This document shows, in pieces, positions 6,376-26,990 of a stretch of DNA of 64,000 nucleotides. The translations under genes were made by a program, and so were the position numbers. The notes under the pieces were generated by a model, which did not search any database, was not told where the DNA came from, and saw only the letters and a program-made list of their open reading frames with translations. Within the stretch, counting starts at the first letter, position 1; every line of letters begins with the position of its first letter. The stretch lies in contig PBKN01000009.1 in NCBI GenBank assembly GCA_002721445.1, forward strand, positions 16,242 through 80,241, read 5' to 3'. Source of the DNA: Chloroflexota bacterium (GTDB taxonomy: Bacteria; Chloroflexota; Dehalococcoidia; Lucifugimonadales; GCA-002723415).

Positions 6376-6984
6376 GTGATTTCTAATTTATCTGAAAAAC
6401 AAATTAATTTTATAAATAAAATCGCCTATTCTGAAACAGGTTTATCTGTTTTTGAAACTACAGATAAGACATATACCATAATACCCCCATTTCCTATTTT
6501 GAATTCATCTTTTAACAATCATGATAAATTTAAAATTTTAAAAGATACATTAAACCAAAAATATATTATTGGAGTTGTTTTATTAAGACTCGGTAGGTAT
6601 GCAATATGTATATTAAAAGGCGAAGAACTATTACATACTAAAACTAAAGACAGATATGTGAAAAACAGACACAAAGCTGGAGGTTCGTCACAAAGAAGAT
6701 TTGAAAGAAGCAGAGAAAGATTAATTAGAGAATTATATGATAAAACATGTGAAATAACTAAGGATATTTTTGAACCTTATGAAAATAAAATTGATTACTT
6801 ATTATTTGGTGGAGAAAAACATACAATAAATGGTCTACATAAAAGGTGCACTTATATAGAAAAATTTAAAAAACAAACTTTAAAGAGATTATTGTCAATT
6901 CAACATGAACCTAACCAAAAAACTTTAGAAAATATTCATAAAGAGGTATGGAAAAGTAAATTATATGAAATTTCTAATATATAA
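6376..6984 (+). CDS. Vms1/ANKZF1-like release-factor-fold (VLRF1-like) protein, putative peptidyl-tRNA hydrolase
   Basis: YIIGVVLLRLGRYAICILKG...HTKTKDRYVKNRHKAGGSSQRRFERSRE parallels the Vms1/ANKZF1 pattern (H)RYTV(R/K)xKxGxxQ with the catalytic Gln loop. The Gln codon is at 6691..6693. The start is uncertain: GTG 6376 has no SD, and the frame is open from 6229 with no ATG/GTG/TTG. Confidence 0.55.
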   Translation: MISNLSEKQINFINKIAYSETGLSVFETTDKTYTIIPPFPILNSSFNNHDKFKILKDTLNQKYIIGVVLLRLGRYAICILKGEELLHTKTKDRYVKNRHKAGGSSQRRFERSRERLIRELYDKTCEITKDIFEPYENKIDYLLFGGEKHTINGLHKRCTYIEKFKKQTLKRLLSIQHEPNQKTLENIHKEVWKSKLYEISNI

Positions 6985-10108: not shown

Positions 10109-10110
10109 TA

Positions 10111-11010: not shown

Positions 11011-11075
11011 TTATTTTCTTTCCTTAATTTAAATTTATTTTTATATAACATGTTAAAACATCTCAATTATAATAA

Positions 11076-11867
11076 TTAATACCACAGAACACCAGTAAAA
11101 TTAGTATCTAAAACTATATCCATCCCTAATGCACAACCGAGCAAAATACTTAAGAAACCTGCTATAAAAATAATTGAATTACCTAATTTTTCAGATTTAT
11201 ATGAAAATGCAAATGGTAATGCCAATACCAAAGTCATTAATGCCATTGAAACCATTGTTCCTATTGAAAAACAAAGTAAAAATATTACACCAGTAAAAAA
11301 TGAATCAGATGTAGGTAATATAGCTAGTAATACAGCTGCACTACCCGCTAAACCATGTACTAAACCTATTAAATAAGATTTAAAACGAAAAAAAGGAATC
11401 AGTTCAGGAAGAAATCCGTGTTTAGTTTCTTCATGTGGGTTAACTTCAGATTTAATTTCCTCGCTTGTATGACTATGTGATCCATGCATATGCTTGTGAG
11501 CTTCATCATCATGTTCATGTGAATGAATATGAAATTCTCCTTTATATATTTTCCAAAAGACTTGCAATCCCAATAAAATCAGCATAATAGCTACACCAAA
11601 TTCAAAATATGTTGCAACAGATTCGTACAAATCCATTGCTGCCTGTTTTAAAAAAAGTATAATTAAGCCTAGTATTATTAATGGAGTAGAGTGACCTAGG
11701 CCCCAAGACAAGCCAACCCATAGACCTTTAAAAACACTTTTATAATCTCTTGCTAAAGTTGAAACTGCTACAACATGGTCTCCATCAGTAGAATGTTTTA
11801 AACCAATTATCAACCCAATGCTAATTGCCGAAATAATGCCTGAAAAACGAATTAATTCATGTTCCAA
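11076..11867 (-). CDS. nickel/cobalt transporter (NiCoT/RcnA-like) with His-rich loop
   Basis: HX4DH-type signature GLKHSTDGDHVVAV. Central loop HIHSHEHDDEAHKHMHGSHSH. Six or more TM helices. Confidence 0.65.
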   Translation of the reverse strand: MEHELIRFSGIISAISIGLIIGLKHSTDGDHVVAVSTLARDYKSVFKGLWVGLSWGLGHSTPLIILGLIILFLKQAAMDLYESVATYFEFGVAIMLILLGLQVFWKIYKGEFHIHSHEHDDEAHKHMHGSHSHTSEEIKSEVNPHEETKHGFLPELIPFFRFKSYLIGLVHGLAGSAAVLLAILPTSDSFFTGVIFLLCFSIGTMVSMALMTLVLALPFAFSYKSEKLGNSIIFIAGFLSILLGCALGMDIVLDTNFTGVLWY

Positions 11868-11955
11868 TTTGTTAACTCTTTCATGATGATTTTATTAAAA
11901 AATTAAGTATAAATTTATTATACATTAGGAAATATAAGAAATAAAAGTTAGTATA

Positions 11956-13371
11956 TTAGGCACGTATAGGTTTTCCACAATTTGATGAATAATCGATGTT
12001 TTCATTTTCGATAACAAAAATTCCATTTACAATCAAATGTACTATTCCTTCAGAAATCGCACTAGGATTTGAATATGTAGATTTATTAATTATACTATCA
12101 GGATTAAATACTACTAAATCAGCATCAGCCCCTAATTTAATACGGCCTTTATTTTTCATATTTGGAACTAAGTTTTCTAATCTTTTAGCAGGCATAAAAC
12201 TCATTTTTCTAATTGCATCAATTAAAGTAATTAATTTTCTCTCTCGAACATATTTACCTAGAATCATAGAATAAGACCCCGTAGTCCTAGGATGACCTTT
12301 ACCTTTTTTGATATATCCATCAGTAGCAATCATAGTTATATCACTTTTAACAGCTATATCAACAACATCATTTGACATAGAATGTAATATAACCATGCCT
12401 CCTTTTGATCTATATTTATCAAATGAAATTTTATTTAATCTTTCGCCAGTTTCTGGCCATTCTAAATCTTTGTAATCCATACCAGTTTTTTCCTGCCAAC
12501 CTTCATCAAATAAAGGAGCTTCAATTCCAGTCATTCCGGCAGCATAAGGATAGCATTCTGTAGTAATGTCTAAACCTTTACTAGAAGCATCTTTAATCAT
12601 TGATAACAATTTAGGGACCATTACATTGCCACTACTATTAATATGCACTAAATGTAATGATGCGCCAGTAATACTAGAAGCGGCAATTAATTCTGAAAGC
12701 CCTTGAATTGCATCGTTCCCAGGTGAAGCTCCCCACCCTCTCATATGTACATGGCAAACTGCATTGTATAAAGCAGCTATACGAAAAACTTCAATTATTT
12801 CCCACCAAGAAGCACCTGGAGTGTAAGCAATTCCTAAACCAACGCATACTGCTCCTTCTTTTAATCCTTTTGATATCATAGATTTTATGTTAATAATTTC
12901 TTCACTAGATGCTTCTTTATGAGCACCATCTCCTACTGGAAGTCTTACTATATCACCTTTAAATTTTTCCTCTTTTAGACTTATACAAGCTGCATCTTTC
13001 ATAACCATCATTCTTATAGGGATATGCCCAATACTAACTCCATAATTAATTGGAGACATATCTTCTCTTGCTTTATACCAATTAACTACATCATCAGTTC
13101 CAAGTTCCAATTCTAATGCAGAAGTAACTCCGTCAGATGCTTGTAAAAAATAATTTTCTCTATCTTGACCATGTGAATGTAAATCAATAAAACCTGGAGA
13201 TATGACTAAGCCTGAAATATTTAATTCTTTATCTCCTTTTATAGAATCTTTACCTAAATATTTAATTACTCCATTATCTATTCCCAAATTCCCTATAAAA
13301 TCCGTCCCACTTTCGGGGTCTATTATGCGCCCATTTAATAAAACAATTTGATATCTTTGAAGCATTTTCAA
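11956..13371 (-). CDS. amidohydrolase, N-acyl-D-amino-acid (D-Glu/D-Asp-type) deacylase-like
   Basis: N-terminal beta-sandwich, then PGFIDLHSHG metal-binding HxH. C-terminal GADADLVVF typical of the D-aminoacylase subfamily. Confidence 0.65.
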   Translation of the reverse strand: MKMLQRYQIVLLNGRIIDPESGTDFIGNLGIDNGVIKYLGKDSIKGDKELNISGLVISPGFIDLHSHGQDRENYFLQASDGVTSALELELGTDDVVNWYKAREDMSPINYGVSIGHIPIRMMVMKDAACISLKEEKFKGDIVRLPVGDGAHKEASSEEIINIKSMISKGLKEGAVCVGLGIAYTPGASWWEIIEVFRIAALYNAVCHVHMRGWGASPGNDAIQGLSELIAASSITGASLHLVHINSSGNVMVPKLLSMIKDASSKGLDITTECYPYAAGMTGIEAPLFDEGWQEKTGMDYKDLEWPETGERLNKISFDKYRSKGGMVILHSMSNDVVDIAVKSDITMIATDGYIKKGKGHPRTTGSYSMILGKYVRERKLITLIDAIRKMSFMPAKRLENLVPNMKNKGRIKLGADADLVVFNPDSIINKSTYSNPSAISEGIVHLIVNGIFVIENENIDYSSNCGKPIRA

Positions 13372-13459
13372 AACTCCTTCAAATATAATATTTAAAAATT
13401 ATTAGATTTAAATTAAAATTTAATATTATGTATTATTAAACATTTTAGAAGAAAAATAT

Positions 13460-14185
13460 ATGCCAAATATAAATATTCATAAAATAAAAGCTTTAACGTT
13501 CGATATTTTTGGAACTGTTACTGACTGGAGAACTTCTATTTATTTAGAAGGATTAAATCTATCGAAACATATAAATATCCCAAATATTAACTGGTTAGAT
13601 TTTGCTGATTCATGGAGAAGTCAATACACGCCATATATGAATAAAGTAAGATTAGGTGAATTACCTTGGACAACTGTAGATGACTTACATAAAATGATAT
13701 TGGAAAAATTATTAAATAATTATGAAATAAATAATTTAAATGAAGAAGAAAAAGACAATTTCAATAAATCCTGGCACAGACTAAAATTATGGCCTGATGT
13801 TATAGATGGATTAAACAGAATCAAGTCAAAATTTAAAATTGCTACATTATCTAATGGAAATATTGATTTACTAACAAACTTGTCAGAAAATGCCGGAATT
13901 AAATGGGACTATATTTTATCAGCTGAAAATTCTAAACATTATAAACCTGATCCAGAAATATATCTTAAAGCTTTGGATATATTGTCTCTAAAGCCTGAAA
14001 ATGTCATGATGATTGCTGCTCATGCATTTGACTTACGGGCAGCAAAAGATGTAGGTATGCAAACTGCATACGTATTAAGAAATCTCGAATTTGGAGAAAA
14101 TATAAAAATAGAAGAAATAAATAATAGTGAATTCGACATAATTGCTAATGACTTCCAAGATTTAGCTTATCAATTAAATACTTAA
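13460..14185 (+). CDS. HAD-superfamily hydrolase, haloacid dehalogenase type II-like
   Basis: LTFDIFGTVTDW (DxxGT nucleophile motif), SNGN, KPDPEIY, AAHAFDLRAAK. Confidence 0.7.
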   Translation: MPNINIHKIKALTFDIFGTVTDWRTSIYLEGLNLSKHINIPNINWLDFADSWRSQYTPYMNKVRLGELPWTTVDDLHKMILEKLLNNYEINNLNEEEKDNFNKSWHRLKLWPDVIDGLNRIKSKFKIATLSNGNIDLLTNLSENAGIKWDYILSAENSKHYKPDPEIYLKALDILSLKPENVMMIAAHAFDLRAAKDVGMQTAYVLRNLEFGENIKIEEINNSEFDIIANDFQDLAYQLNT

Positions 14186-14189
14186 TTAA

Positions 14190-15494
14190 TTACTTCCTTC
14201 TTTTCCTTATTCTTTTTCTAGTTTTTTTGGCTATGCCAATAGATGCAAATTTTTCTTTTGAATCTGAAGAATAATTATGGTTAGATGTTTTATTATGATT
14301 AGTGTTTTTATTAATATTTTTCAAGGTTTTAGATTTATTATTCGAGGAATTAGAATTAACTTCAACTAAATTATAATCAAAATCTGAAAACTCAAATCTA
14401 TCAATAGGTTTACCTAAAACTGATTCTATTTTTCGAACTAATAATTTATCCTCGGGAACAATAAGAGTAAAAGCCTTGCCATCTTTTTGAGCTCTACCTG
14501 TCCTACCAATTCTATGTACATATGTATCAACTGTATTAGGTATGTCAAAGTTAATCACATGTGAAACTGAAGATATATCTAAACCACGTGAAGCAACATC
14601 TGTAGCAACTAATATATCAAACTTACCTTCACGAAATCCTTCTATAGCTCTATGACGCTTATTTTGAGACATGTTACCCTGTAAAGATACTACTTTATAT
14701 TTAGATTTAGAAATTTTTTGAGTTAATTTTTCTGCTTTAAATTTAGTACGTGTAAAAATTATAACTTGCCCAGTCGCAGTATATTTAAGAATATGCATCA
14801 ACAATTTAGTTTTAAGCCTACTACTAATTGGATAAAGAACATGGGAAACTGTTTCAATAGGAGATTTTATATCAATTTCTATTGTCACATTATTATTAAG
14901 GATATTGTCTGATAAAGTTCTGATTTCATCTGGCATAGTTGCAGCAAAAAATAATGTTTGTCTGTTTTTTGGTAAAAATGAAATTATACGTCTGATATCA
15001 GGCAGAAATCCCATATCGCACATTGTATCTGACTCGTCCAAAACTAACATTTCTAATTTATTCAGATCAAGATTATTATCTCTAATATGATCAAGGAGAC
15101 GACCTGGACAAGCGACAACAATCTCAGATTTACCACGTAAAGATTTAGTTTGAGGAATCTTACTCACTCCACCATAAATTGCAACAGTCCTGATTTTAGT
15201 ATTTGAGGTGAATTTAATAACAGTCTGTGAAATTTGCTCAGCAAGTTCTCTAGTAGGTACTAAAATAAGTGCTCTAATAACTCCCGGATTAAATTTCTCC
15301 TCTGTAATTCTTTGAATAATAGGTAATATAAAAGCTAAGCTTTTCCCAGTACCAGTTTGTGCTAAACCTAAAACATCTCTACCTTGCAAAGCTATAGGAA
15401 TAGCTTTTTCTTGAATAGGTGTTGCGTATTTATGGCCTACATCATTTATAATAGAAAGAAGATTATTATTAAGTTTCAGTTGTTCAAATTTCAG
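14190..15494 (-). CDS. DEAD-box-family RNA helicase (motif II is DESD) with probable CTG start
   Basis: Q-motif F-x..-ATPIQEKAIP lies upstream of the track's TTG start. Also AQTGTGKS, VLDESDTM, FFAAT, HRIGRTGRA, and an N/K/S/R-rich tail. CTG at 15494 is preceded by AGGAG (15501..15505) at 6-nt spacing. An in-frame TAG lies 3 codons upstream. Confidence 0.85.
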   Translation of the reverse strand: MKFEQLKLNNNLLSIINDVGHKYATPIQEKAIPIALQGRDVLGLAQTGTGKSLAFILPIIQRITEEKFNPGVIRALILVPTRELAEQISQTVIKFTSNTKIRTVAIYGGVSKIPQTKSLRGKSEIVVACPGRLLDHIRDNNLDLNKLEMLVLDESDTMCDMGFLPDIRRIISFLPKNRQTLFFAATMPDEIRTLSDNILNNNVTIEIDIKSPIETVSHVLYPISSRLKTKLLMHILKYTATGQVIIFTRTKFKAEKLTQKISKSKYKVVSLQGNMSQNKRHRAIEGFREGKFDILVATDVASRGLDISSVSHVINFDIPNTVDTYVHRIGRTGRAQKDGKAFTLIVPEDKLLVRKIESVLGKPIDRFEFSDFDYNLVEVNSNSSNNKSKTLKNINKNTNHNKTSNHNYSSDSKEKFASIGIAKKTRKRIRKRRK

Positions 15495-15696
15495 AGAGTG
15501 CTCCTAATCCCAATATATGACTCTCTTAGAACCATGACAAATAGATAATTGATAATGCCTAGAAATAAAAAAGTATTAACTATAAAGCTATTATATCAAT
15601 AAATATATAGCGCAATCAAACTAGATTAATAATATTTGAATTATAGTAACCTAAAACCTAATTCTTAATATATCTAAAATTTATTGGAGAAAAAGA

Positions 15697-16479
15697 ATGG
15701 ACAAGTTAAAAGATAAAGTTGCAATAATTACTGGTGGCAATAGTGGAATTGGTGAATCAACTGCTCACTTATTTGCTAATGAGGGAGCTAAAGTAGTAAT
15801 TCTAGCTAGAAGAGAAAAAGAAGGATTTCAAGTTCAAAAATCTATACAACAAAACGGTGGAACATGCTTATTTATAAAATGTGATGTAACTAATCTAAAT
15901 GAAATTAATAAAGCAATTAAAACTATTATCAGTAATTTTAAAAAAATTGATATACTTTTTAATAATGCAGGTATGGCCTCATCAAATAATTTTCCAGATG
16001 AAAATAATGATGATTGGAATTCAGTAATCGAAGTAAACCTGTCAGGTACTTTCTATATGTGTAAAGCTGTCTGGCAACACTTAATAAAATCTAATGAAGG
16101 AATAATAGTAAATATGTCTTCATTATCAGCTCAAAGAGGATTTAGTAATAATATTTACAATATAAGCGGAGCTCCTTCAGCATCTTATTATGCTTCAAAA
16201 GCTGGAATAGATGCATTGACTAGATATTTAGCCAGTATAGGGGGAAAACATAATATTAGAGTCAACTGTGTTAGACCAGGTCAAATAATTACTGAACAAG
16301 CTAAAGGAGAAGATGGTAATCACAAATTTAAACCAACTTTTGATTTACTTCAAATATTACAAAATGCAGGTAAACCTGAAGATGTAGCAAATACTGTTTT
16401 ATTTTTAGCAAGTAAGGATTCAAAATTTATAACTGGTGAAATTATCAATATAGATGGTGGAATGCCAGCTAAGTTATAA
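15697..16479 (+). CDS. short-chain dehydrogenase/reductase (SDR)
   Basis: TGGNSGIG, NNAG, catalytic S...YYASK. Confidence 0.85.
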   Translation: MDKLKDKVAIITGGNSGIGESTAHLFANEGAKVVILARREKEGFQVQKSIQQNGGTCLFIKCDVTNLNEINKAIKTIISNFKKIDILFNNAGMASSNNFPDENNDDWNSVIEVNLSGTFYMCKAVWQHLIKSNEGIIVNMSSLSAQRGFSNNIYNISGAPSASYYASKAGIDALTRYLASIGGKHNIRVNCVRPGQIITEQAKGEDGNHKFKPTFDLLQILQNAGKPEDVANTVLFLASKDSKFITGEIINIDGGMPAKL

Positions 16480-16506
16480 ATTTTTGAAATTATATATACG
16501 ATATTT

Positions 16507-17937
16507 ATGAATCAGAATATAAATATACATTGGTTCAGGCAAGATTTGAGGTTAAACGATAACCCTTCACTATTTAATGCTGCCAAAAATAGCAATCTAT
16601 TACCAATATATATATATGATAATAAAAATCAAGAAAAATTTCATATAGGGAATGCTAGTAAAGTATGGTTATATTATTCATTAAAGTCTCTTAATAATTC
16701 ATTAGCTGGAAAATTACATGTATATATAGGAGACCCAAAAAAAATTTTATTTGAACTTATAAAAACAAATGAAGTTAAAAATGTTTATTGGAATGAATGC
16801 TATGAGTTATGGAGAATAAATAGTGATAATCAAATAAAAAATATCTTACATAAACAAGGAGTAACCGTAAAAACTTATAATGGTTCATTATTATGGGACC
16901 CAAAAAAGATAATGAAAAATAACCAAACTCCTTATAAAATATTCACTCATTATTATCGCAAAGCTAATCAAATTTCACATAACCCTAGAAACCTTTTTCC
17001 TATTCCTAATAAATTAGATATAGTTAACTTGAAAATACACAAAAATAATATTGAAGATTTAGGTCTCTTACCTAAATCTAAATGGTACAAATCTGTAATA
17101 TCCAATTGGAACATAGGTGAAAAAGAAGCTCAAAATAAATTAACCAATTTTACATATAAGAAGATGAATAAATATAAAATGTTTAGAAATTATCCATCAA
17201 GACAATATACTTCTTTACTTTCCCCTCACCTACATTTTGGAGAAATATCACCAAATCAAATATGGCATTCTATTAAAAAGTTAGATATTGATGAAAACAT
17301 TAGTCAATTTTTTAGTCAGTTAGGATGGAGGGAATTTTCATATTATTTACTTTTTCATAACCCATATATGCCAGAAAAAAATATACAAACAAAATTCAAT
17401 TCTTTCCCTTGGAATAAAAATGATAAATTTTTTAATAAATGGAAAAAGGGAATTACAGGTATCCCAATAATTGATGCTGCTATGAGAGAATTATGGAAAA
17501 CAGGATACATGCATAATAGAATGCGAATGATTACAGCTTCTTTTTTAGTAAAAAACCTACTTATTCATTGGAAGCATGGAGAATTATGGTTTTGGGATTG
17601 CTTATTAGATGCTGATTTAGCCAATAATAGTTCGGGTTGGCAATGGGTTGCAGGTTCTGGAGCAGATGCCTCTCCATATTTTCGCATATTTAATCCAATC
17701 ACTCAAAGTCAAAAATTTGATCCCCAAGGAATATATATAAGAAAGTATATACCTGAATTAAAAAAGTTAGATACTAAATATTTATTTAAACCTTGGGAAG
17801 CTCCAATTACTGAATTAAAAAAAGCTAATATAATTTTAGGCACTACATATCCAAAACCAATTATTGACTTAAAATATTCCTATCAAAGAGCAATGAATTC
17901 ATTTAAATCTTTAAAATATAATTCATTAAAAATTTAA
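16507..17937 (+). CDS. phr: deoxyribodipyrimidine photolyase (class I CPD type)
   Basis: WFRQDLRLNDN, WREFSYYLL, TGIPIIDAAMREL..TGYMHNRMRM, DADLANNSSGWQW. Confidence 0.85.
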   Translation: MNQNINIHWFRQDLRLNDNPSLFNAAKNSNLLPIYIYDNKNQEKFHIGNASKVWLYYSLKSLNNSLAGKLHVYIGDPKKILFELIKTNEVKNVYWNECYELWRINSDNQIKNILHKQGVTVKTYNGSLLWDPKKIMKNNQTPYKIFTHYYRKANQISHNPRNLFPIPNKLDIVNLKIHKNNIEDLGLLPKSKWYKSVISNWNIGEKEAQNKLTNFTYKKMNKYKMFRNYPSRQYTSLLSPHLHFGEISPNQIWHSIKKLDIDENISQFFSQLGWREFSYYLLFHNPYMPEKNIQTKFNSFPWNKNDKFFNKWKKGITGIPIIDAAMRELWKTGYMHNRMRMITASFLVKNLLIHWKHGELWFWDCLLDADLANNSSGWQWVAGSGADASPYFRIFNPITQSQKFDPQGIYIRKYIPELKKLDTKYLFKPWEAPITELKKANIILGTTYPKPIIDLKYSYQRAMNSFKSLKYNSLKI

Positions 17938-18029
17938 TATTAAGGTACACCAAAATATTCTGTTCTTGATCAGTTTTTCTATAATTTTACATATAAATTT
18001 CACATATAATTATAAAGTATGTTATTATG

Positions 18030-18052
18030 TTGCTACTATAAAATAGTAGCAA
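18030..18052. promoter_or_regulatory. perfect 10-bp inverted repeat (TTGCTACTAT-AAA-ATAGTAGCAA): operator or terminator candidate
   Basis: Read directly from the sequence. It lies between the phr stop (17937) and the SBP start (18134), at the left edge of the GC-rich segment. Confidence 0.4.
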
Positions 18053-18133
18053 ATATTTTGTCTCGAAATTAGTTACTTATTGCATACGCTTAATATTAAG
18101 TTATGGCAATATAAAAAACGATGGAGGTTAACT

Positions 18134-19279
18134 ATGAATAGTTATAGCGTTAAATCGATTTACAGTATATTAGTTTTGGTTTTTATTTTAATGGGGGTTA
18201 TTGCTTGTAGTAGCGAACCTACAACGGTAAAAATAGGACTTTTAAGTCCCCAAACTGGCCCAATAGCACAATATGCCCCAGGCTTTGAAGATGCCGGAGC
18301 AATAGCTATATCGGAGCTCAATAAGACTCATGAAGGAGACTACGTTTTTGAATTAATTGTTGCAGACTCGGGTTGTGATGGCACACAAGCTGGAACTGCT
18401 GCCCAAACTCTTATTGACAGCGGTGTTTCTGCAATAGTTGGAGCTGCCTGTTCGGGTGCGACTCTAGGTGCAATTGCAGTTGCTGCTCCAGCAGGAGTCC
18501 CAATGGTATCATACGCCAGTACTTCTCCTGGACTTAGTGGTGCAGACGATAATGGATACCTTTTCCGTGTTGTTCCAAGTGATGCTCAACAAGCAGTTGC
18601 TTTAGCAGCAGTGACAGCTGCTGAAGGTGCAAGTAACCCAGCAGTTCTTTATATGACAAATGATTACGGTGCAGGACTCGGTGATAATTTTGCATCCAGC
18701 TGGTCTGGTAGCGTATGCACACAAGCTGGATACGACCCAACTGAAGGTTCTTATGATGCCTCATCTTTAGCTCAATCTGTTATCGATGGTGGATGTGATT
18801 CAGTTCTACTTATGTCATATGCTACAGATGGTGCTTCAATCATAGAAGCTTTGTCAACACAAGGCTTCACCGGTAAAATGATTGGTGCTGATGGTGTTGC
18901 AGATGCTAAATTCACTGATGCATTTACTGACGTAACAGCAGTAAATGGTTTGATAGCAACCAGACCTCGTCCCGGTGAAGATACTAATGCAAAAACAGCC
19001 TTTGAGAGTGCTTATGCTGCTGCCGGTGGTGCTGATGGAGCAATATATACCGGAGAAACTTATGATGCAATCAAAATTATAGCTGCATCTATTATTTCCG
19101 ACCCTGAAAACATACTGACATCATTGAAAAAGACTGGCACAAATTACGTTGGAGCCAGCGGTACACATACCTTTGATGCAAATGGTGATGTTGCTGGTAC
19201 AGGGTATGAAGTATGTCAGTTTGACGGTACAGCCTTCTCTTGTCCTAGAACCTGGACTTCAAGTGATGGAATAAAATAA
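18134..19279 (+). CDS. ABC transporter substrate-binding lipoprotein, branched-chain amino acid (LivK/Peripla_BP_6) type
   Basis: GGAGG SD before ATG 18134. Lipobox LMGVIAC. IGLLSPQTGP..A and the GA.CSGAT pattern match type-I PBPs. Confidence 0.8.
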   Translation: MNSYSVKSIYSILVLVFILMGVIACSSEPTTVKIGLLSPQTGPIAQYAPGFEDAGAIAISELNKTHEGDYVFELIVADSGCDGTQAGTAAQTLIDSGVSAIVGAACSGATLGAIAVAAPAGVPMVSYASTSPGLSGADDNGYLFRVVPSDAQQAVALAAVTAAEGASNPAVLYMTNDYGAGLGDNFASSWSGSVCTQAGYDPTEGSYDASSLAQSVIDGGCDSVLLMSYATDGASIIEALSTQGFTGKMIGADGVADAKFTDAFTDVTAVNGLIATRPRPGEDTNAKTAFESAYAAAGGADGAIYTGETYDAIKIIAASIISDPENILTSLKKTGTNYVGASGTHTFDANGDVAGTGYEVCQFDGTAFSCPRTWTSSDGIK

Positions 19280-19314
19280 TTAAACAACTTTCAAAATAAA
19301 TCATTTTGCCATTG

Positions 19315-19357
19315 GAATTGGCCTGCATCTACTCACGTATCGACTGTAGGCCAATTC
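19315..19357 (+). promoter_or_regulatory. intercistronic stem-loop (13-bp stem with one G-U, 17-nt loop)
   Basis: GAATTGGCCTGCA (19315..19327) pairs with TGTAGGCCAATTC (19345..19357). It lies between the SBP and permease genes and has no convincing U-tract. Confidence 0.5.
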
Positions 19358-19418
19358 ATTTAACCAGCAATACAAATATTTAGCCCAAAGAGCGGAGGTC
19401 TAAATTGAAAAGACGAGA

Positions 19419-22337
19419 TTGTCTTTGAACGCAATATGGCAACGTTGGATGCTTAAACCTTCATGGCTGCTCCAAGTAGTATTTTCGGTTTTTCTATTTT
19501 TTGATGCCTATTTTGGGTTAATCCATAACAAAGGAATAATTACCTCATTAGGTTTATTAACAGGCGAAATAAAGTGGCTAACATTATTCGTCGAAATGAT
19601 GGCAGGCATCCTTCTCCTAGTCAGAATAATACTTAACCAGATAGATATTAGGTGGAAAAGTACAGTAATCATATTTACACCTATTATAGTGACTTTGGTT
19701 GGGTTTGTTGTTCTTGATTTCTTACTAACTGGATTGGGTAGATCAGCCACATTGAATTTCAACTTATCTTCGCTAGGATCAAGTGGTCTCTACTGGTCTG
19801 CAGTTTATATCAGCATAGCAATAGGCTTGACAATCACTTATAAGGTTCAACGTTTCGCTAATTTCGCACAGGCAGAAATGATGCTCTTTGGAGCTTACGT
19901 GGCTTTAACTTTAATGTGGTCCGATAGGTTTTTCCCGATTTCAAATGCACCTAAGGACGGATCTCTCAATTGGGAGTTGATAATTTGGTCTGGAATCAGC
20001 GCATTTATTATAACTGGTATTATTGGTTTAATTATAGATAAAGTAGTTTATAAGCGATTTAGAAACAAAATGGCTACTCCACAAGTAATGATGATCGCTT
20101 CTCTCGGAGTATCAATGGTACTTCGTGCCATACTTTATATGCGTTTTAGTGCGAGTACTCACCGTTTCATACCAGATCGAGATTGGAGGCTTAGCACAGC
20201 TACGTTTGAAATTCCTACTAAGCAATTACAACTCCACCTAGGAGATCGTATTAATGCTCCTTTAGTAGATATCGTTGGAAACGTTAATTCATATGGATTC
20301 GCCTACTCGAAGGTAGCCCTTGTAGTAGGTATATTCGGTGCAATCATTCTCTTGTTATTTATCTTACATCGCACTAGCCTTGGAAGACAAATGCGTGCAG
20401 TGGCTGACAACTCGGATCTCGCTGCATCCAGCGGAATTCACGTCGAACGTGTGCACGGGAGCACCGCCTTCCTTTCATCTGGAATTTCTGGTCTTGGCGG
20501 TGCATTACTAGCAGCGATATTACCAATCAACCCTGAACTAGGCCTGACATTGCTATTACCTGCGTTTGCAATCATCGTTCTGGGTACTATTGGTTCCATC
20601 CCGGGTGTAATCATTGGATCATTAATAATCGGATTATTGAGAGCTACCTCAGAGCCTGTGTTAATTGGTGCTGGAAACGCATTAGATCGTCCAACTGCTA
20701 CTGGTTTTGCAGAAGTTATGCCTTTCATCTTCCTTATCGGATTACTTCTATTAGCACCTCGGGGTATAGGCTCAGCGATTCAAGATTGGAATATTAAACG
20801 GATTCGAAAGAAGCGTCTGTCACAACAAAATAAAAAATCTCCTAATCCTCAATTGAATAAGGTCTTTATTCTACTAAACCCTCTATCAGATACCTTATCT
20901 CAAGCTATAATTTATATTTACCAAGTCAAACAAGTGATTAATATACTAATGGAATTAATAAAAAAGACTATAAAAACTTATAGTGGATTACTGAAAAAAT
21001 GTACACTTAAACTATTAGCAAAGATAAAATTCACTGGACCTAGCAGAACAGATATTCTATCAGGATTACGTATCAAGCCGAGTAATTGGGTACGGATTAA
21101 AAGGGAAACAGAACGTGGTTCATGGATAACATTCGCTATTCTTTTTCTATTGCTAGCCTGTATTGTTTGGATACTCCCAAGTGTTACCACTCTTACAAAG
21201 GTGTTACAAGTCGCTCGTATCATTACGCTTGTAAGTATTTTTAGCTTGGCTTGTTTCTCTCTCAATTTGCATACAGGTTTGACTGGTATGACTAATTTTG
21301 GAGTTATTTTCTTTGTTGGCATTGGAGCAGTGGTTGTGGGTTTACTTTCAGCTCCAGTTGCAACAAATGGCTATGGGTGGAATCCATTTATGGCTACAAT
21401 CGTTGCCGTCATAATATCAGCTACAATTGGATGGTTACTTGCATATCCTACTGCTAGACTCAGGATGGATTACTTTGCCATAGTCACAATTGCTCTTGGC
21501 GAAGTACTAAGAATTTCTCTTCAAGCAGAACCTTTACTTCGTGCTGGTACTACTACATCAGCTATGGGTATTTCACAATTTTCTCGTCCACTCGAAAGTT
21601 GGTGGGAAAATGGACCATCTGAAATGGTGGGGAATTTACTTGGGCTAAATATCTCAGCACCATATGTAGTATTCCTGTCTATCATATCAGCATTATCAGT
21701 AATTGTCGTCTGGTTCATACTTAACACTGTCCTTCTATCTCCCTGGGGAAGGATTCTCCGTTCGATAAGGGATGATGAAATAGTAAGCCAGCATCACGGA
21801 CACAACATTCTTATTCACAAGGCAGCTAGCCTCGCCTTGGGTGCTGCTATAGCCGCCCTGGCTGGCGCGCTTTGGGCTTGGTTAAATACTAATGTATGGC
21901 CAGATTTCATGAATCCAGTTCGTACTACATTTCTAATATGGGCAGCTTTTATAGTTGGAGGTCGTGGTAATAACAGAGGAATGATTATTGGAGCATTTCT
22001 GATAGTTATAGTCGAATTTATATTCAACGTAATGGTTGTATCTAGAGGTAGTGCCAGCTTACCATTTCATAATATGACTTCATATCTAGATAATGTGTTT
22101 TCTTGGTTAATATTAAATGTTGGAGGAATTATATGGTCAGATCGATCAATTACTGAGATTTTCCCTAAAGGGGATATTATCTTATCTTTACCTCATCTAA
22201 AATTGGCACTAATTGGAGTTGTAATTGTAGGCACATTACTTACATCTTCTAAAGGTTTATTACCTGAAGTTCCTAGCCGACCAAAAAGACCTTCCAATTC
22301 ACACTCAAATTTGGATAAAGAAGGGAGTTCAAAATAA
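19419..22337 (+). CDS. fused LivH-LivM type ABC permease (972 aa)
   Basis: The N-terminal half has LivH-like helices (…GLTITYKV..FANFAQAEMM…) and the C-terminal half is LivM-like (…HTGLTGMTNFG…). They are joined by a K-rich linker of about 110 aa. The TTG start is uncertain. Confidence 0.75.
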   Translation: MSLNAIWQRWMLKPSWLLQVVFSVFLFFDAYFGLIHNKGIITSLGLLTGEIKWLTLFVEMMAGILLLVRIILNQIDIRWKSTVIIFTPIIVTLVGFVVLDFLLTGLGRSATLNFNLSSLGSSGLYWSAVYISIAIGLTITYKVQRFANFAQAEMMLFGAYVALTLMWSDRFFPISNAPKDGSLNWELIIWSGISAFIITGIIGLIIDKVVYKRFRNKMATPQVMMIASLGVSMVLRAILYMRFSASTHRFIPDRDWRLSTATFEIPTKQLQLHLGDRINAPLVDIVGNVNSYGFAYSKVALVVGIFGAIILLLFILHRTSLGRQMRAVADNSDLAASSGIHVERVHGSTAFLSSGISGLGGALLAAILPINPELGLTLLLPAFAIIVLGTIGSIPGVIIGSLIIGLLRATSEPVLIGAGNALDRPTATGFAEVMPFIFLIGLLLLAPRGIGSAIQDWNIKRIRKKRLSQQNKKSPNPQLNKVFILLNPLSDTLSQAIIYIYQVKQVINILMELIKKTIKTYSGLLKKCTLKLLAKIKFTGPSRTDILSGLRIKPSNWVRIKRETERGSWITFAILFLLLACIVWILPSVTTLTKVLQVARIITLVSIFSLACFSLNLHTGLTGMTNFGVIFFVGIGAVVVGLLSAPVATNGYGWNPFMATIVAVIISATIGWLLAYPTARLRMDYFAIVTIALGEVLRISLQAEPLLRAGTTTSAMGISQFSRPLESWWENGPSEMVGNLLGLNISAPYVVFLSIISALSVIVVWFILNTVLLSPWGRILRSIRDDEIVSQHHGHNILIHKAASLALGAAIAALAGALWAWLNTNVWPDFMNPVRTTFLIWAAFIVGGRGNNRGMIIGAFLIVIVEFIFNVMVVSRGSASLPFHNMTSYLDNVFSWLILNVGGIIWSDRSITEIFPKGDIILSLPHLKLALIGVVIVGTLLTSSKGLLPEVPSRPKRPSNSHSNLDKEGSSK

Positions 22338-22339
22338 TT

Positions 22340-23122
22340 ATGATAGTACCTGCACTTCAGATATCAAACCTTTCAAAGGATTTTGGTGGTCTAAGAGCAG
22401 TAGACCAAGTTTCGTTTCATGTTGAAAAAGGAGAACTTGTTGGATTGATTGGACCTAACGGATGCGGAAAAACCACTACATTTAATTGTATTTCCGGAAT
22501 GTTGGAGATGAGTTCTGGCAAAGTAGAAGTACTTGGCCAAGATGCAACGGGCATGCGACCGGACCAGATTCAAAGTCTAGGCTTAACAAGAACATTTCAA
22601 CACACATGGTTATGGCGAGATATGACTGTGATCGAGAACCTTCTTGTTCCTCCACGCAAGCAATTCGCACCCAATACTTTACTTTCTTTGCTGCGTCCTA
22701 ATTCACGAAAAGATGAAAAACAGCGTTTAATAGATGCTTACGCTGTTCTGGATTTACTTGAGATATCTCATATAGCACACAATCTTGCAAGTGAATTATC
22801 AGGTGGACAAAGTAAACTCGTCGACATTGGCCGTGCTCTTATGAGCTCACCCCAGTTTTTGTTACTTGACGAACCGGTTGCTGGAGTTGCCGGTCCTCTT
22901 GCAGAGAGAATTTTCCATAACCTTCTATCCTTAACTTCTGACAAAAATATAGGAATGTTGGTTATCGAACACAACATGGACTTTATACTTCGAAGTGATG
23001 TTGACAGAATTATTGTCATGGATTCAGGTCAAATCTTAATGGAAGGTACACCGGAAGAAATCAAAAATAGCCAAGATGTTGTTGAAGCATATCTCGGTAA
23101 TCCAGGAGAAACTCAAAAATGA
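22340..23122 (+). CDS. ABC transporter ATP-binding protein, LivG-like
   Basis: GPNGCGKTT Walker A, LSGGQSK, LLLDEP. The TGA stop overlaps the next start (ATGA). Confidence 0.85.
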   Translation: MIVPALQISNLSKDFGGLRAVDQVSFHVEKGELVGLIGPNGCGKTTTFNCISGMLEMSSGKVEVLGQDATGMRPDQIQSLGLTRTFQHTWLWRDMTVIENLLVPPRKQFAPNTLLSLLRPNSRKDEKQRLIDAYAVLDLLEISHIAHNLASELSGGQSKLVDIGRALMSSPQFLLLDEPVAGVAGPLAERIFHNLLSLTSDKNIGMLVIEHNMDFILRSDVDRIIVMDSGQILMEGTPEEIKNSQDVVEAYLGNPGETQK

Positions 23123-23832
23123 ATAAAATCCTAGAAGTTAAAGCCCTAGAAGGAGGTTACACAAATGTGCAAATCTTAAATGGAATTGATTTATATGTTA
23201 ACAAAGGAGAATTCGTCACTATAATAGGGCCAAATGGATGCGGTAAATCTACATTCTTAAAGGTACTTTTTGGGCTAGCCACACACCACAAGGGTACGGT
23301 TTTGTACAATAATTCAGATGTGTCTGGATGGAGAACTGATCGGCTGGTAGATCAAGGGATCTCATACGTTCCCCAGGTTGATAATGTGTTTCCTTCTTTG
23401 TCAGTTCGAGAGAATTTGCAAATGGGAGGAATTAGACTGAACTCCAAGAAACTTAAGAATTCTATAGAACGAGCTTGCAACATGTTTCCAGATTTGCAGG
23501 AACGAATGAATGATCTTGCAGCCTCTCTATCCGGAGGTGAGAGACAGATGTTGGCAATATCAAGAGCTCTTATATCAGAACCTTCCTTCCTGCTTTTAGA
23601 CGAACCAACTGCAGCGCTATCGCCCAAATACCAACAGGAAATTATCGCAAATATCGATGAACTGCGAATGGAAGGAATTTCAGTACTTCTAGTAGAACAA
23701 AATGCAAGACTATCTCTTGAAAGATCGAATCGCGGATATATATTTTCTTCAGGAAAAGTAATCCATACAAGCAGTGCTAAAAATATTCTCAATGATCCAA
23801 ATATCGGAGACTATTTTCTAGGATTGAAGTAG
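23119..23832 (+). CDS. ABC transporter ATP-binding protein, LivF-like
   Basis: GPNGCGKST, LSGGERQML, LLLDEPT, LVEQN. Confidence 0.85.
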   Translation: MNKILEVKALEGGYTNVQILNGIDLYVNKGEFVTIIGPNGCGKSTFLKVLFGLATHHKGTVLYNNSDVSGWRTDRLVDQGISYVPQVDNVFPSLSVRENLQMGGIRLNSKKLKNSIERACNMFPDLQERMNDLAASLSGGERQMLAISRALISEPSFLLLDEPTAALSPKYQQEIIANIDELRMEGISVLLVEQNARLSLERSNRGYIFSSGKVIHTSSAKNILNDPNIGDYFLGLK

Positions 23833-23963
23833 AAGTAATGTAATTTCTTTTTGAAGAAGTACTTTGAATATGATCCAGACACATAGGTATTAAACGTACT
23901 TTTTAATCACTTTTTCATAGTCAATATTAAAAAAATTATTTAATAAATATTATCACTATAAAT

Positions 23964-24617
23964 TCACAACAACACAAAACCAACCCAATCGTGCATCATT
24001 TTAATGAATAAGTAAACAGCTACAAAAATAAGAAAAATCCCACTAACTCTACTGGCAACTTTTACTTTATTTTGGAAAATCTTAACAATATTAGATCCAG
24101 TTAGTACTAAAGCTACTAATATGTACCAACAAGCATCAATTACGGCAGCAGTAACACCCATTAAGGTCGTTTCTGTCCAACTCGAATCTGGCTGGACTAA
24201 ATGACTAAATATTGCTAGAAAGAATAAAGCAATTTTCGGGTTAAGAATAGATATTAAAAATCCTTCACTCGCTCCTCTCAGCAGAGTTCTAGAGCTAGTC
24301 GACTTTATATCATTTTCTTGAATTGAAACTTCGTTGTAATTAAATATTGTACGAAAACCTATATATGCAATAAGGCATGCTCCAACAATTTGCATAGTTA
24401 CTAATATACCTGATGCATTAACTAATAATCCTGTTATGCCTACAGCAGTCAAAAATGCCCAAATACCTATACCTATACCATGTGCAAGACTTGTAATAAT
24501 ACCGTAAGTTCTTCCTCCAGCAAAAGTATTTGTAACTACTAAAGCCAGGCTAGGCCCTGGGGATATTGCACCTAAAAAACAAATAGCAACAAGTTGAAGC
24601 CAAATCTCAATGTTCAT
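23964..24617 (-). CDS. LysE/RhtB family amino-acid exporter
   Basis: 217 aa, six TM helices. N-terminal ..GAISPGPS.. motif typical of LysE/RhtB. Confidence 0.75.
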   Translation of the reverse strand: MNIEIWLQLVAICFLGAISPGPSLALVVTNTFAGGRTYGIITSLAHGIGIGIWAFLTAVGITGLLVNASGILVTMQIVGACLIAYIGFRTIFNYNEVSIQENDIKSTSSRTLLRGASEGFLISILNPKIALFFLAIFSHLVQPDSSWTETTLMGVTAAVIDACWYILVALVLTGSNIVKIFQNKVKVASRVSGIFLIFVAVYLFIKMMHDWVGFVLL

Positions 24618-24790
24618 AAATTATAGTCCTATAATTTTTTGATATTATACAATCTCATTTGTTTTGAAACTAGAGTAAGTTCTAAACCAAATGTGTTACA
24701 CTTTTGAAAAGTCTGGTAGATTAAATTAATAACAACAAATATTGATAGACTAAATACAATAACTAACCCGATATTATAAGGAGTATTGAA

Positions 24791-25681
24791 TTGGATAATT
24801 TACGTGGAATATTTCCAGCCACTGTTAGCACTTTTGATATGGATGGTAGATTCGACGCAGTATCAATGCGTCAAATAGTTAGACACCAAATAGACGCTGG
24901 AGTCCATGGACTATATGTCTGTGGAGGTACTGGTGAAGGACTATTGATGAATTCTAAAGAACGACAAGATTTACTAGAAACTGTATTAGATGAAACACGT
25001 GGTGATGTAACTGTAATAGCACATGTGGGTGCATTTCAAATACCTGAAACGATTACATTGGCTAAGCATGCAAGCGAAATTGGAGTTGATGCAATTTCTG
25101 CTTTACCTCCATCTTATTTTTACAAACCCGATGAAATATCCCAAGTAAATTATTACAAATCTATAGCACAAGTTTCTGAAGTTCCCTTGTTAATCTACAA
25201 TATACCTCAAAGAACTGGTATTGCAATGACCGAATCACTTTATGAAGAACTTATACAAACCGATAATATTATCGGTATGAAAGATTCGAGTGGAGATATT
25301 TATACACTAGGTCACTTGGCTAGTAAATGGAAAGAATCCGTGATTTTTGAAGGAGAAGATTCCCTTTTATTGCCCAGCCTACTTGCAGGAGCAATTGGAG
25401 GTATAGGAGCGAGCTACAACATTATGCCCGAACTTTTCGTACAACTGTGGGAAGCTTACCAAGGAAACAATATTGATAAAGCAGCTAAGCTTCAAGCTAG
25501 AATAAATGAAATCATACGAGCACTTTTGAATTCGCCGGATCTTATTGGTGGTATAAAAGAGATATTAGCTTGGATGAACCTAGAATGTGGTCCTCCACTA
25601 GCCCCCAATCGAAAATTGAATTCTGATGAATCCGCAAAACTTCGTCAAACTTTTGACAACATAGGCTTTTTCGAAAAATAA
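24791..25681 (+). CDS. DapA/N-acetylneuraminate-lyase family class I aldolase
   Basis: GGTGEG, IYNIP, Schiff-base Lys context IIGMKDSSGD. TTG start has AAGGAG 7 nt upstream. Confidence 0.75.
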   Translation: MDNLRGIFPATVSTFDMDGRFDAVSMRQIVRHQIDAGVHGLYVCGGTGEGLLMNSKERQDLLETVLDETRGDVTVIAHVGAFQIPETITLAKHASEIGVDAISALPPSYFYKPDEISQVNYYKSIAQVSEVPLLIYNIPQRTGIAMTESLYEELIQTDNIIGMKDSSGDIYTLGHLASKWKESVIFEGEDSLLLPSLLAGAIGGIGASYNIMPELFVQLWEAYQGNNIDKAAKLQARINEIIRALLNSPDLIGGIKEILAWMNLECGPPLAPNRKLNSDESAKLRQTFDNIGFFEK

Positions 25682-25765
25682 ATTAGAAACTCATTCATTT
25701 AACCATATAAGGTTATGATTAAAAAGGATCTGCTAACTAAATACCTGTTGTTAAATAAATGTTAG

Positions 25766-25841
25766 TGGTGACCCGCCTCGGACTTGAACCGAGAACCTAT
25801 TGATTAAGAGTCAATTGCTCTGCCAATTGAGCTAGCGGGCC
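25766..25841 (-). tRNA. tRNA-Lys (anticodon CTT), CCA encoded
   Basis: Hand-folded cloverleaf. Acceptor GGCCCGC/GCGGGTC (one G-U). D stem GCTC/GAGC. Anticodon stem ATTGA/TCAAT with loop CTCTTAA. T stem CTCGG/CCGAG with loop TTCAAGT. 3' ACCA. Confidence 0.9.
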
Positions 25842-26051: not shown

Positions 26052-26990
26052 TTGACTAATTCAACCCACACTAATGATAATAATAAAAATAACCTTTTAA
26101 AGTTTATTTCGTTCACTACTGTTTTATCTGCATTAATTCAAATTACATTAGGTGGAATAGTTAGAGTTACTGAGTCTGGTTTAGGTTGCCCAGATTGGCC
26201 ACTTTGTTTTGATCAAATAGTACCTTCCTTTACAGATACAGAAACTGCAACAGCTACTGAAACAGTGATAGAATATTCACATAGAGTAAGTGGTGCAATA
26301 TTAATTTTATTAGTTTTATCTACTACAATTATTTCATGGAAAAAAATAAATAAATTTAACACAACTAAAATTTTTGCAATTTTTACTTTAATACTAGTAC
26401 TTATTACTGGTGCATTCGGTGGAGTAACTGTAATTACAGAACTACCTTGGTGGAGCGTATTGATACATTTATCTCTTGCAGAATTCACTCTGGCTTCATC
26501 GTTAGTAGTATGGATTTCTACTTGGGATTCTTTAAAAAGTATAAATTATACTCCTGACATGAATTTTGAAAAACTTACAATACTTTCATTATTTGGTTTA
26601 TTAATATTAATAATGTCAGGATCCTTTATGGTAGGACTTGGATATGGTTCATCTTGTTCATCATGGCCATTTTGCGGAAATGAATTAATCCCAACACAAA
26701 AACCTTATTTAATTAATATGCTTCATAGATTAATATCATTATTTATTGGTATTCTAATAATATATACCGTTATTAAGGGCTTAAAAATTTATAAACACAA
26801 TATCTTATCAAAATTAAATATGGCACTAATTCACTCATTTATAATTCAAATACTATTCGGAGCACTAATTGTATGGCTTGATTTTCATCCACATATAAAA
26901 TTAACTCATTATATTTTTGCTACAATTGTCTGGGCTTTATTAGTAATGATAATAACTATTACAAATATAAAAAAACATCAACTAAAATAA
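26052..26990 (+). CDS. ctaA: heme A synthase (COX15/CtaA)
   Basis: GLGCPDWPLC and a second Cys pair SSCSSWPFCG. Eight TM helices with conserved His. TTG start. Confidence 0.8.
   Translation: MTNSTHTNDNNKNNLLKFISFTTVLSALIQITLGGIVRVTESGLGCPDWPLCFDQIVPSFTDTETATATETVIEYSHRVSGAILILLVLSTTIISWKKINKFNTTKIFAIFTLILVLITGAFGGVTVITELPWWSVLIHLSLAEFTLASSLVVWISTWDSLKSINYTPDMNFEKLTILSLFGLLILIMSGSFMVGLGYGSSCSSWPFCGNELIPTQKPYLINMLHRLISLFIGILIIYTVIKGLKIYKHNILSKLNMALIHSFIIQILFGALIVWLDFHPHIKLTHYIFATIVWALLVMIITITNIKKHQLK

Follow-up and report, generated by a model that had tools for sequence, protein, structure and literature searches.

The LivJ/LivK-LivHMGF system of E. coli (HAAT family, TC 3.A.1.4) and the UrtABCDE urea importer are the closest characterized counterparts of a transporter operon that we analyzed in a contig of a Chloroflexota bacterium (PBKN01000009.1), where it occupies most of a segment of raised G+C content, 18060-25841, that ends with a tRNA-Lys gene. 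The window is the whole 64-kb stretch of DNA analyzed, and all coordinates are window positions. The operon has the same five functional parts as these two systems, from the same Pfam families and in the same order: a substrate-binding protein (SBP), the permeases LivH and LivM, and the ATPases LivG and LivF. It differs from them in that LivH and LivM form one 972-aa protein (LivHM) that contains a linker and an additional segment at its N terminus, that the binding protein is a lipoprotein, that its proteins score far below the cut-offs of all NCBIfam equivalog models, and that a LysE-family exporter is conserved together with it.

Two kinds of genomic setting invite comparison with the locus. 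Classical islands integrated at tRNA genes, taken here as a class with generally known features rather than through a specific example, share with the segment an atypical composition, proximity to a tRNA 3' end, and a patchy distribution among relatives. Unlike in such islands, no integrase or attachment (att) repeat was found in the window, the polymorphic boundary and the tRNA are about 1.1 kb apart, every lineage of the clade has the same gene next to the tRNA, and the gain appears to be ancient rather than strain specific. Streamlined marine bacteria also have flexible or hypervariable regions, such as the SAR11 hypervariable regions and the Prochlorococcus islands. Like these, the locus is a fixed slot between backbone genes that holds alternative cargo (transporter plus LysE, the same plus a photolyase, or a sulfur cassette), has no recognizable mobility genes, and carries functions in transport and niche adaptation. 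Unlike these, the slot varies between lineages (with backbone proteins about 75 to 96% identical) and not between strains, three states of it were sampled, and we infer the mechanism of its exchange.

Our findings suggest that the transporter and LysE genes were probably gained long ago by horizontal transfer from a SAR202 lineage of higher G+C content and have since descended vertically, with incomplete amelioration of their codon usage. Mean G+C is 38.4% in the segment and 28.6% in the remaining 56 kb of the window, a step of about 10 points; 1-kb intervals inside it reach 33 to 41%, the richest 200-nt interval reaches 50.5%, and its six genes individually lie between 34.7 and 43.4%. The original prediction, which read the segment as an acquired island, had put its interior at 53 to 55% G+C. 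The four 60-nt counts behind that figure are exact (13/60 and 17/60 in the flanks, 32/60 and 33/60 inside), but the two inside lines are local maxima and the true contrast is about 10 points, not about 28. Single-line counts thereby inflated the contrast almost threefold, a caution for annotation.

Roughly half of the G+C excess is due to protein composition and half to codon choice. When each protein was re-encoded with the host's own codon usage (host mean, 29.2% G+C), the observed value exceeded the expected one in all operon genes and in LysE: 43.4% versus 40.1% for the SBP, 38.9% versus 32.6% for LivHM, 40.5% versus 34.1% for LivG, 38.8% versus 31.3% for LivF, and 34.7% versus 32.1% for LysE, with 37.7% versus 33.6% for the aldolase gene that follows them. 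Among the 55 open reading frames (ORFs) of at least 150 aa in the window, the G+C content at third codon positions (GC3) is 0.22 to 0.31 in the 6 within the segment (z = 2.4 to 5.7) and 0.150 (standard deviation, 0.028) in the 49 others, so the change in codon choice claimed by the original prediction is real and GC3 is not unchanged. By gene, GC3 is 0.22 in the SBP and in LysE, 0.23 in the aldolase, 0.295 in LivHM (0.166 expected), 0.29 in LivG (z = 5.0), and 0.31 in LivF (z = 5.7). The tetranucleotide z-score signature (TETRA), which is normalized for lower-order composition, correlates with the rest of the window at only 0.30 to 0.40 across 18 to 24 kb, compared with 0.61 ± 0.08 elsewhere (minimum elsewhere, 0.46). 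In LivHM, LivG, and LivF, both C- and G-ending codons are enriched in every codon class, which fits a compositional legacy, while six presumed highly expressed housekeeping genes (cox1, enolase, GAPDH, PdxS, IF3, and SHMT) show little enrichment of either.

The operon has many relatives outside the host clade. Database clusters of the SBP number more than 100 and run unbroken from 99% to 75% identity, several of them labeled SAR202, Chloroflexi, or Dehalococcoidia. Three contigs with sampled flanking genes carry the operon at the GC3 of their flanks, namely, L090 (38.5% G+C; SBP 85% identical to that of the window), L093 (43% G+C; SBP 82%), and L097 (48% G+C; SBP 76%), and their operon neighborhoods are unrelated to that of the window. 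Two more contigs are L185 (50% G+C; SBP 87% and LivHM 82%; operon GC3 0.46 to 0.56) and L186 (43% G+C; SBP 89%; SBP GC3 0.35). The fused permease was seen in L090, L093, L097, and L185, though not in the short L186 contig, and both ATPases were seen in L090, L093, and L097. Within the host clade, the lineages compared were those of the window, L102 (a partial contig that begins within LivHM), L110, and L099/L109. The identity of the window's proteins to those of L110 and L090, respectively, is 91% and 85% for the SBP, 82% and 76% for LivHM, 87% and 83.5% for LivG, 81.9% and 82.3% for LivF, and 66% and 59% for LysE.

Neighbor-joining (NJ) trees of few taxa, uncorrected for compositional bias, were calculated from three concatenations. 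In the ctaB+cox2+cox1 tree, the host clade sits on a long stem; in the SBP+LivHM tree, it (the window plus L110) has 100% bootstrap support and a short stem and is nested among L090, L185, and L093; and in the LivG+LivF tree, it is nearly stemless and star-like. Within the reach of such few-taxon NJ trees, the operon trees are incongruent with the core-gene tree; taken with the composition, this speaks for an entry of the operon into the clade from a SAR202 lineage of higher G+C content. The synonymous divergence (dS) between the window and L102 is 0.30 to 0.46 for the operon and 0.48 to 0.59 for the backbone (by NG86, a relative indicator only, since base composition is extreme), and divergences this comparable fit vertical descent after the gain. 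Between the window and L110, fourfold-degenerate sites are near saturation, with 0.28 to 0.57 of them differing (0.38 to 0.57 among transporter genes); the ceiling is about 0.63, a hand estimate from third-position base frequencies. The operon thus stands at the same locus in lineages whose synonymous sites are nearly saturated, and the gain is old.

Synteny defines the slot in which these genes lie. Its limits are the stop codon of a gene for an SDR-family oxidoreductase on the left and, on the right, a conserved block, about 150 nt long, that precedes the aldolase gene. L102 (cox1 96% identical) matches the window from LivHM through LivG, LivF, LysE, aldolase, and tRNA-Lys to ctaA. L110 (146 kb; cox1 96.5%, ctaA 77%) has the order HAD-helicase-SDR-SBP-LivHM-LivG-LivF-LysE-aldolase-tRNA-Lys-ctaA, and its slot has no photolyase. 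L099 and L109 (254 and 164 kb; cox1 93%) run from the SDR gene through a sulfur cassette to aldolase-tRNA-Lys-ctaA, and the photolyase, operon, and LysE were not found at this locus, the locus being what was searched and not the whole L099 genome. The cassette, on the minus strand at 4112-8465 of L099 and 5459-9767 of L109, encodes a rhodanese, TusA, an 84-aa ORF, a YeeE/YedE-type Sulf_transp protein, and a sulfite-oxidase-like molybdopterin oxidoreductase; its GC3 is near native (0.14 to 0.23), and a tblastn search of the window with the L099 cassette returned no remnants or homologue. Presence and absence are therefore polymorphic between conserved flanks, with the operon in the window, L102, and L110 and the other cassette in L099 and L109. 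The lack of the operon at this locus in one host-clade lineage (L099/L109) speaks for the acquisition that the original prediction suggested. L099 is the earliest branch of the four host-clade lineages in the ctaB+cox2+cox1 NJ tree (82% bootstrap), and its lineage is probably the earliest-branching one of the clade.

These observations suggest a course of events whose direction and timing, like the transported substrate, we infer. The donor would have been a higher-GC SAR202 lineage, plausible donor types carrying the same operon at a GC3 of about 0.35 to 0.55, and the module would have entered the slot between SDR and aldolase in an ancestor that at least three sampled lineages have in common, at about the point where those of the window, L102, and L110 began to diverge. 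Thereafter, it would have been inherited vertically while its codon usage drifted partway toward that of the AT-rich host. The same slot would later have taken up the photolyase gene in the window's lineage, and in the L099 lineage it holds the sulfur-metabolism cassette instead. Three cargo states and the lack of mobility genes point to a flexible region whose content might be exchanged by recombination in the conserved flanks.

The original prediction suggested another route, in which tRNA-Lys served, at its 3' end, as the site-specific target of a 7.6-kb island whose integrase and att repeat were afterward lost. A block near a tRNA 3' end, with a composition atypical for the host by both GC3 and TETRA and with an operon that one related lineage lacks, is what would suggest such an island. 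In L099/L109, however, where the operon is lacking, the aldolase, the upstream block, and the tRNA are all present, which places the edge of the empty site on the upstream side of the aldolase, about 1.1 kb away from the tRNA. No empty site that joins the backbone to the tRNA 3' end was seen; the segment that is replaced runs from SDR to aldolase, and the aldolase-tRNA-Lys pair is constant in all four host-clade lineages. When elements integrate serially at a tRNA, the newest comes to lie beside it, but the gene nearest the tRNA here is the clade-wide aldolase. Lineages other than these do not consistently have the operon or the aldolase beside tRNA-Lys. The lack of an integrase, of an att repeat, and of mobility genes had already been noted in the original prediction and is upheld: Pfam scans of 52 of the 55 ORFs found no integrase, tyrosine or serine recombinase, or transposase domain, the 25-mer at the tRNA 3' end has no second copy in the 64 kb at up to 3 mismatches, and direct repeats across 15.6 to 26.1 kb gave nothing meaningful and none above chance. 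The tRNA-Lys has no demonstrable part in the acquisition, the boundary is not at the tRNA, and we regard integration at this tRNA as highly improbable. Proximity to a tRNA plus a step in G+C content is insufficient for calling a tRNA-integrated island. What stands of the proposed island is that the operon with LysE looks foreign by its codon usage, by its oligonucleotide signature, and by its phylogeny; the tRNA as insertion point, a recent gain, and the unity of the 7.6 kb do not stand. The aldolase has a separate history, and the photolyase just outside is a lineage-specific insert in the same slot.

Vertical inheritance would make the operon and the aldolase ancestral to SAR202, with a G+C content that reflects Ala/Gly-rich conserved proteins and an expression-related codon preference, and with a loss of the operon in L099. 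Much of the G+C excess is indeed driven by amino acids, as in the SBP, whose G+C content at second codon positions is about 0.52 in all homologues independently of genome G+C, and the excess in the SBP and the aldolase involves only C-ending codons, a direction weakly seen in presumed highly expressed genes. Yet the permease and the ATPases exceed the SBP in GC3, although the SBP should be the most expressed component, and in contrast to the housekeeping controls, G-ending codons are enriched too. That the GC3 excess has outlived the saturation of synonymous sites, and that the GC3 profiles of the window and L110 covary along LivHM despite it, would suit vertical descent, whereas the operon trees lack the long host-clade stem of ctaB+cox2+cox1. 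LivF is equally distant from L110 and L090, whereas ThrRS identity is 84% inside the clade and does not exceed 71% beyond it. With the operon in unrelated neighborhoods in other lineages as well, we consider vertical inheritance from the SAR202 ancestor quite unlikely. An assembly or binning chimera that joined a higher-GC fragment to a low-GC contig would explain the abrupt change of composition at gene boundaries, but we give it practically no credence: the SDR-phr-SBP and aldolase-tRNA-ctaA junctions both recur, with 100% identical proteins, in independent Tara assemblies (Logan, ENA, JGI, and NCBI) from different samples and pipelines, and the junctions are also present in the diverged L102 and L110.

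Recurrent gene flow, in which the copy in the window and L102 was replaced or independently acquired later from an L185/L186-like higher-GC SAR202 donor, has to reckon with the grouping of the window with L110 at 100% bootstrap for SBP+LivHM and with the identical slot and orientation in the window, L102, and L110; moreover, no sampled donor is above 87 to 89% identity (SBP), so no recent event is visible. It draws on the GC3 of the operon, which is 0.29 to 0.31 in the window and L102 but 0.19 to 0.24 (versus 0.14 to 0.22) in L110, on the 170 nt that precede the SBP start codon (17964-18133), where the window is nearer to L185/L186 (z of about 11 against shuffles) than to L110 (z of 4.5), and on an SBP+LivHM identity of the window to L185 (83.4%) that almost equals that to L110 (84.5%). 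The proportion of synonymous differences (pS) between the window and L110 is 0.64 to 0.67 in LivG and LivF, above every backbone gene (0.33 to 0.58), and the tree of these two proteins is a star, but the pS comparisons are confounded by the difference in composition. The aldolase offers a parallel, being 89% identical to the copy in L107 and 79% to that in L110. Taken together, later replacement or independent acquisition appears unlikely.

An ancient gain followed by vertical descent remains the reading that we favor, and several points weigh against it. By a rough neutral calculation of our own, the GC3 excess should be almost gone since the split of the window and L110, but it persists at about twice the background in the window and L102; an excess that outlasts synonymous saturation strains simple incomplete amelioration. 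Parsimony polarization of synonymous changes on the branches of the window and L102, aimed at ongoing amelioration, gave a spurious AT-to-GC excess in the backbone controls too, because the outgroups are saturated and AT rich, and the partial LivHM frames were misaligned. The excess of the SBP and the aldolase is restricted to C-ending codons and could reflect translational selection rather than legacy, and the monophyly of the window and L110 could be inflated by convergent, AT-driven amino acid change. The absence of the operon in L099 holds for this locus only, the position of L090, L185, and L186 outside the host clade is judged from composition and from identity gaps in ctaA and ThrRS, and the direction of transfer is read from composition alone. 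That the foreign codon usage is actively maintained, either by repeated allelic replacement from higher-GC SAR202 or by selection or biased gene conversion on synonymous sites, is possible but doubtful.

The features of the slot and its surroundings are collected in Table 1.

Table 1. Annotated features between the left backbone anchor and ctaA, in window positions
Feature	Position	Strand	Assignment and remarks
SDR-family oxidoreductase, left backbone anchor	15697..16479	+	Pfam adh_short_C2, E 3.7e-63; GC3 0.126
Deoxyribodipyrimidine photolyase (phr)	16507..17937	+	Pfam DNA_photolyase plus FAD_binding_7; GC3 0.18, native composition
Upstream region of SBP gene (promoter/5' untranslated region)	17938..18133		Terminator-like hairpin at 18030-18052
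SBP, lipoprotein, HAAT-type (LivJ/K-like)	18134..19279	+	Pfam Peripla_BP_6, E 1.8e-37
Fused LivH-LivM permease, 972 aa	19419..22337	+	Two BPD_transp_2 stretches (Pfam)
LivG-type ABC ATPase	22340..23122	+	Pfam ABC_tran plus BCA_ABC_TP_C
LivF-type ABC ATPase	23119..23832	+	Pfam ABC_tran
LysE/RhtB-family exporter, divergent	23964..24617	-	PF01810 (LysE), E 1.9e-25
Conserved intergenic block	24618..24790	.	About 150 nt kept in the window, L102, L099, and L110
Class I aldolase, N-acetylneuraminate-lyase/DHDPS family	24791..25681	+	Pfam DHDPS, E 2.6e-69
tRNA-Lys (anticodon CTT)	25766..25841	-	ARAGORN; Rfam tRNA, 68.1 bits
CtaA (heme A synthase)	26052..26990	+	Pfam COX15-CtaA; opens the ctaA-ctaB-cox2-cox1-cox3...ThrRS backbone

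The domain content of the operon is that of a HAAT importer, with Peripla_BP_6, two BPD_transp_2 stretches, and LivG and LivF ATPases, all above the Pfam gathering scores. Pfam, NCBIfam, and ARAGORN agree with the gene list of the original prediction (a LivK/HM/G/F-type importer, LysE, a DapA/NAL-family aldolase, and tRNA-Lys(CUU)), LivH and LivM being one ORF. None of the NCBIfam equivalog models was passed (score/cut-off: LivJ-like, 109/477; LivM, 125/366; LivH, 68/379; LivG, 217.8/362; LivF, 193.8/441), and the proteins do not match the characterized E. coli Liv proteins at the level of orthology. The signal peptide of the SBP ends in a V-I-A-C lipobox, and the solved structures nearest to the protein are Leu/Ile/Val-binding proteins (E from 5e-23 for the best to 1e-17). 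Its start is most likely the ATG at 18134, behind GGAGG, and not the TTG at 18080: L081 is called from the same start, public assemblies call the ATG, and an exact look-up of the protein read from the TTG gave no match. The LivH-LivM fusion occurs in all relatives (916 to 995 aa). The protein is extended at its N terminus, and its linker (residues 481 to 540) is Lys rich and poorly conserved, with a G+C content of 0.28 at first and second codon positions and 0.20 at third positions; the NCBIfam matches of the protein, to UrtB/LivH and LivM/UrtC, are all below cut-off. The order SBP-HM-G-F is kept in 6 lineages. In 60-codon bins, the GC3 of LivHM covaries between the window (19419-22337) and L110 (4724-7621), while that of L185 is flat; the covariation might be a matter of synonymous-site constraint or of amino acid context.

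The LysE-family protein scores 89.9 bits against a cut-off of 25.6 over residues 16 to 206 of 217, with subfamily models below their cut-offs, and its gene adjoins the operon in the window, L102, L110, L090, and L093 (5 of 6 lineages), but not in L097. As predicted from these families, the module should be a high-affinity importer, with amino acids or similar small nitrogen compounds as its putative substrates. The lipid-anchored SBP would capture the solute, the fused LivH-LivM would form the channel, and LivG and LivF would hydrolyze ATP, as in a type I ABC importer of the HAAT family. Chloroflexi cells have no outer membrane, which fits a lipid-anchored SBP. The divergent LysE-family protein would provide efflux, putatively of an amino acid or a related compound. 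Scans for promoter and terminator consensus sequences did no better than on shuffled sequences, and searching the literature for expression or metaproteomic data on this SAR202 transporter turned up nothing pertinent.

The aldolase adjoins tRNA-Lys in all four host-clade lineages, and the sequence and position of the tRNA are identical in L099, L102, and L110; its 3' end is 84 nt from the aldolase stop codon at 25681, not about 65 nt as originally stated. The nearest solved structures are N-acetylneuraminate lyases (E 2e-50), but an assignment to NanA or DapA is not reached, as the NCBIfam scores are below cut-off for NF003164 (248.8/281), TIGR00683 (205.7/382), and TIGR00674 (DapA; 177/206). 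Copies that are 84 to 89% identical to that of the window occur in L105-L108, on contigs of 38 to 43% G+C (43% for L107), with other neighbors and no tRNA; their GC3 of 0.32 to 0.34 is below that of their flanks. Upstream of the gene, they share only the last 45 nt or so with the host clade, comprising the ribosome-binding site and the TTG start. The aldolase has its own history and has itself been exchanged between lineages. A functional partnership with the transporter was considered and rejected, since L099 and L105-L108 are cases of the aldolase without the operon, and L090, L093, and L097 of the operon without the aldolase. The block upstream of the aldolase is conserved although synonymous sites in the host clade are near saturation, and at 24640-24790 it holds a GTGT-T-ACAC palindrome. 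An Rfam scan of 15.5 to 27 kb found only the tRNA, with no match for the block, and RNAalifold gave -6.5 kcal/mol without covariation, so that an RNA element is unsupported and the block is probably a promoter or operator.

On the left side of the slot, the SDR protein is 80 to 82% identical and syntenic in L099 and L110. The photolyase gene begins 27 nt past the SDR stop codon, outside the interval of the original prediction, and L110 and L099 have no such gene between SDR and its next neighbor; its best match among GTDB species genomes is 57% identical, without synteny. According to passages of one study, photolyase is enriched in genome-streamlined SAR202 (ISME J 2025, PMC11994032). The gene may have been gained by this lineage in particular, for living in sunlit water. 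The sole GTDB genome that echoes the left flank of the window is L014 (Chloroflexi bacterium TMED70, 31.8% G+C), which has at 9563-19606 a photolyase (55%) and, about 8 kb from it, SDR (55%) and HAD (42%), the interval containing no Liv operon.

Other parts of the window also deserve mention. A second local G+C peak, of 38%, coincides with PdxS (SOR_SNZ; 48988-49887), in which GC1 is 0.57 and GC3 is 0.15; this peak is wholly driven by amino acids, and a GC3 of 0.15 at such a G+C content means that amino acid composition alone does not raise GC3 here. The highest GC3 (0.23) of the 49 ORFs outside the segment belongs to a 151-aa ORF at 4704-5159 without a Pfam match, whose overall G+C content is an ordinary 28%. 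The original prediction had also remarked on many long antisense ORFs; such shadow ORFs are 2 to 5 times denser inside the segment than outside, because a higher G+C content leaves fewer stop codons, but just two of them reach 100 aa.

On the sequence evidence, the host is a genome-streamlined SAR202 bacterium (Chloroflexota) of about 29% G+C from the sunlit ocean. An NCBI metagenome-assembled genome labeled "SAR202 cluster bacterium" encodes a protein 100% identical to its ThrRS, and the order ctaA-ctaB-cox2-cox1-cox3-cox4-ctaG-SCO1-L20-L35-IF3-ThrRS is common to the window and the SAR202 contig L103 and, as far as SCO1, to L104; cox1 is 69 to 74% identical to those of L103 and L104. An acVLRF1 domain (Actinobacteria/Chloroflexi VLRF1-type release factor; E 2.4e-22) at 6376-6984 is consistent with a Chloroflexi host. 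Genome-streamlined SAR202, as described in passages of the study cited above, comprise subgroups Ib, Ic, and VI with 29 to 33% G+C, small genomes, and a euphotic habitat (PMC11994032). The window resembles them in its composition, the Tara surface-ocean origin of its matches, and its SAR202-labeled ThrRS, while the searched passages of that source mention no genomic islands, this operon, or compositional heterogeneity. The identity of homologues to the window falls from 99, 86, 82, 79, and 77% to at most 44% for ctaA and from 100, 87, 85, and 85% to at most 71% for ThrRS, and judged by these gaps, the host clade is isolated. Backbone proteins are 77 to 96% identical within it and 38 to 74% identical to those on SAR202 contigs outside it. 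Depending on the core protein, the best identity to anything beyond the clade lies between 44 and 75%, compared with 76 to 87% for operon proteins against SAR202 lineages of 38 to 50% G+C.

The feature is an ordinary case of old gene transfer, and our findings open no long-standing question. The twofold GC3 excess that persists past synonymous saturation is a small puzzle concerning amelioration in AT-drifting streamlined genomes. If repeated replacement were true, genes would flow across 10 to 20 points of G+C content between lineages with core proteins no more than 71% identical, and if the codon usage were actively maintained, the transporter module would be a shared good across the SAR202 radiation that lands in one fixed slot. 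One HAAT-type transporter plus LysE module spans SAR202 lineages of 29 to 50% G+C at 76 to 91% protein identity. Streamlined SAR202, an abundant group of the surface ocean, have at least one variable slot, the cargo of which is nutrient transport, UV repair, or sulfur metabolism, depending on the lineage.

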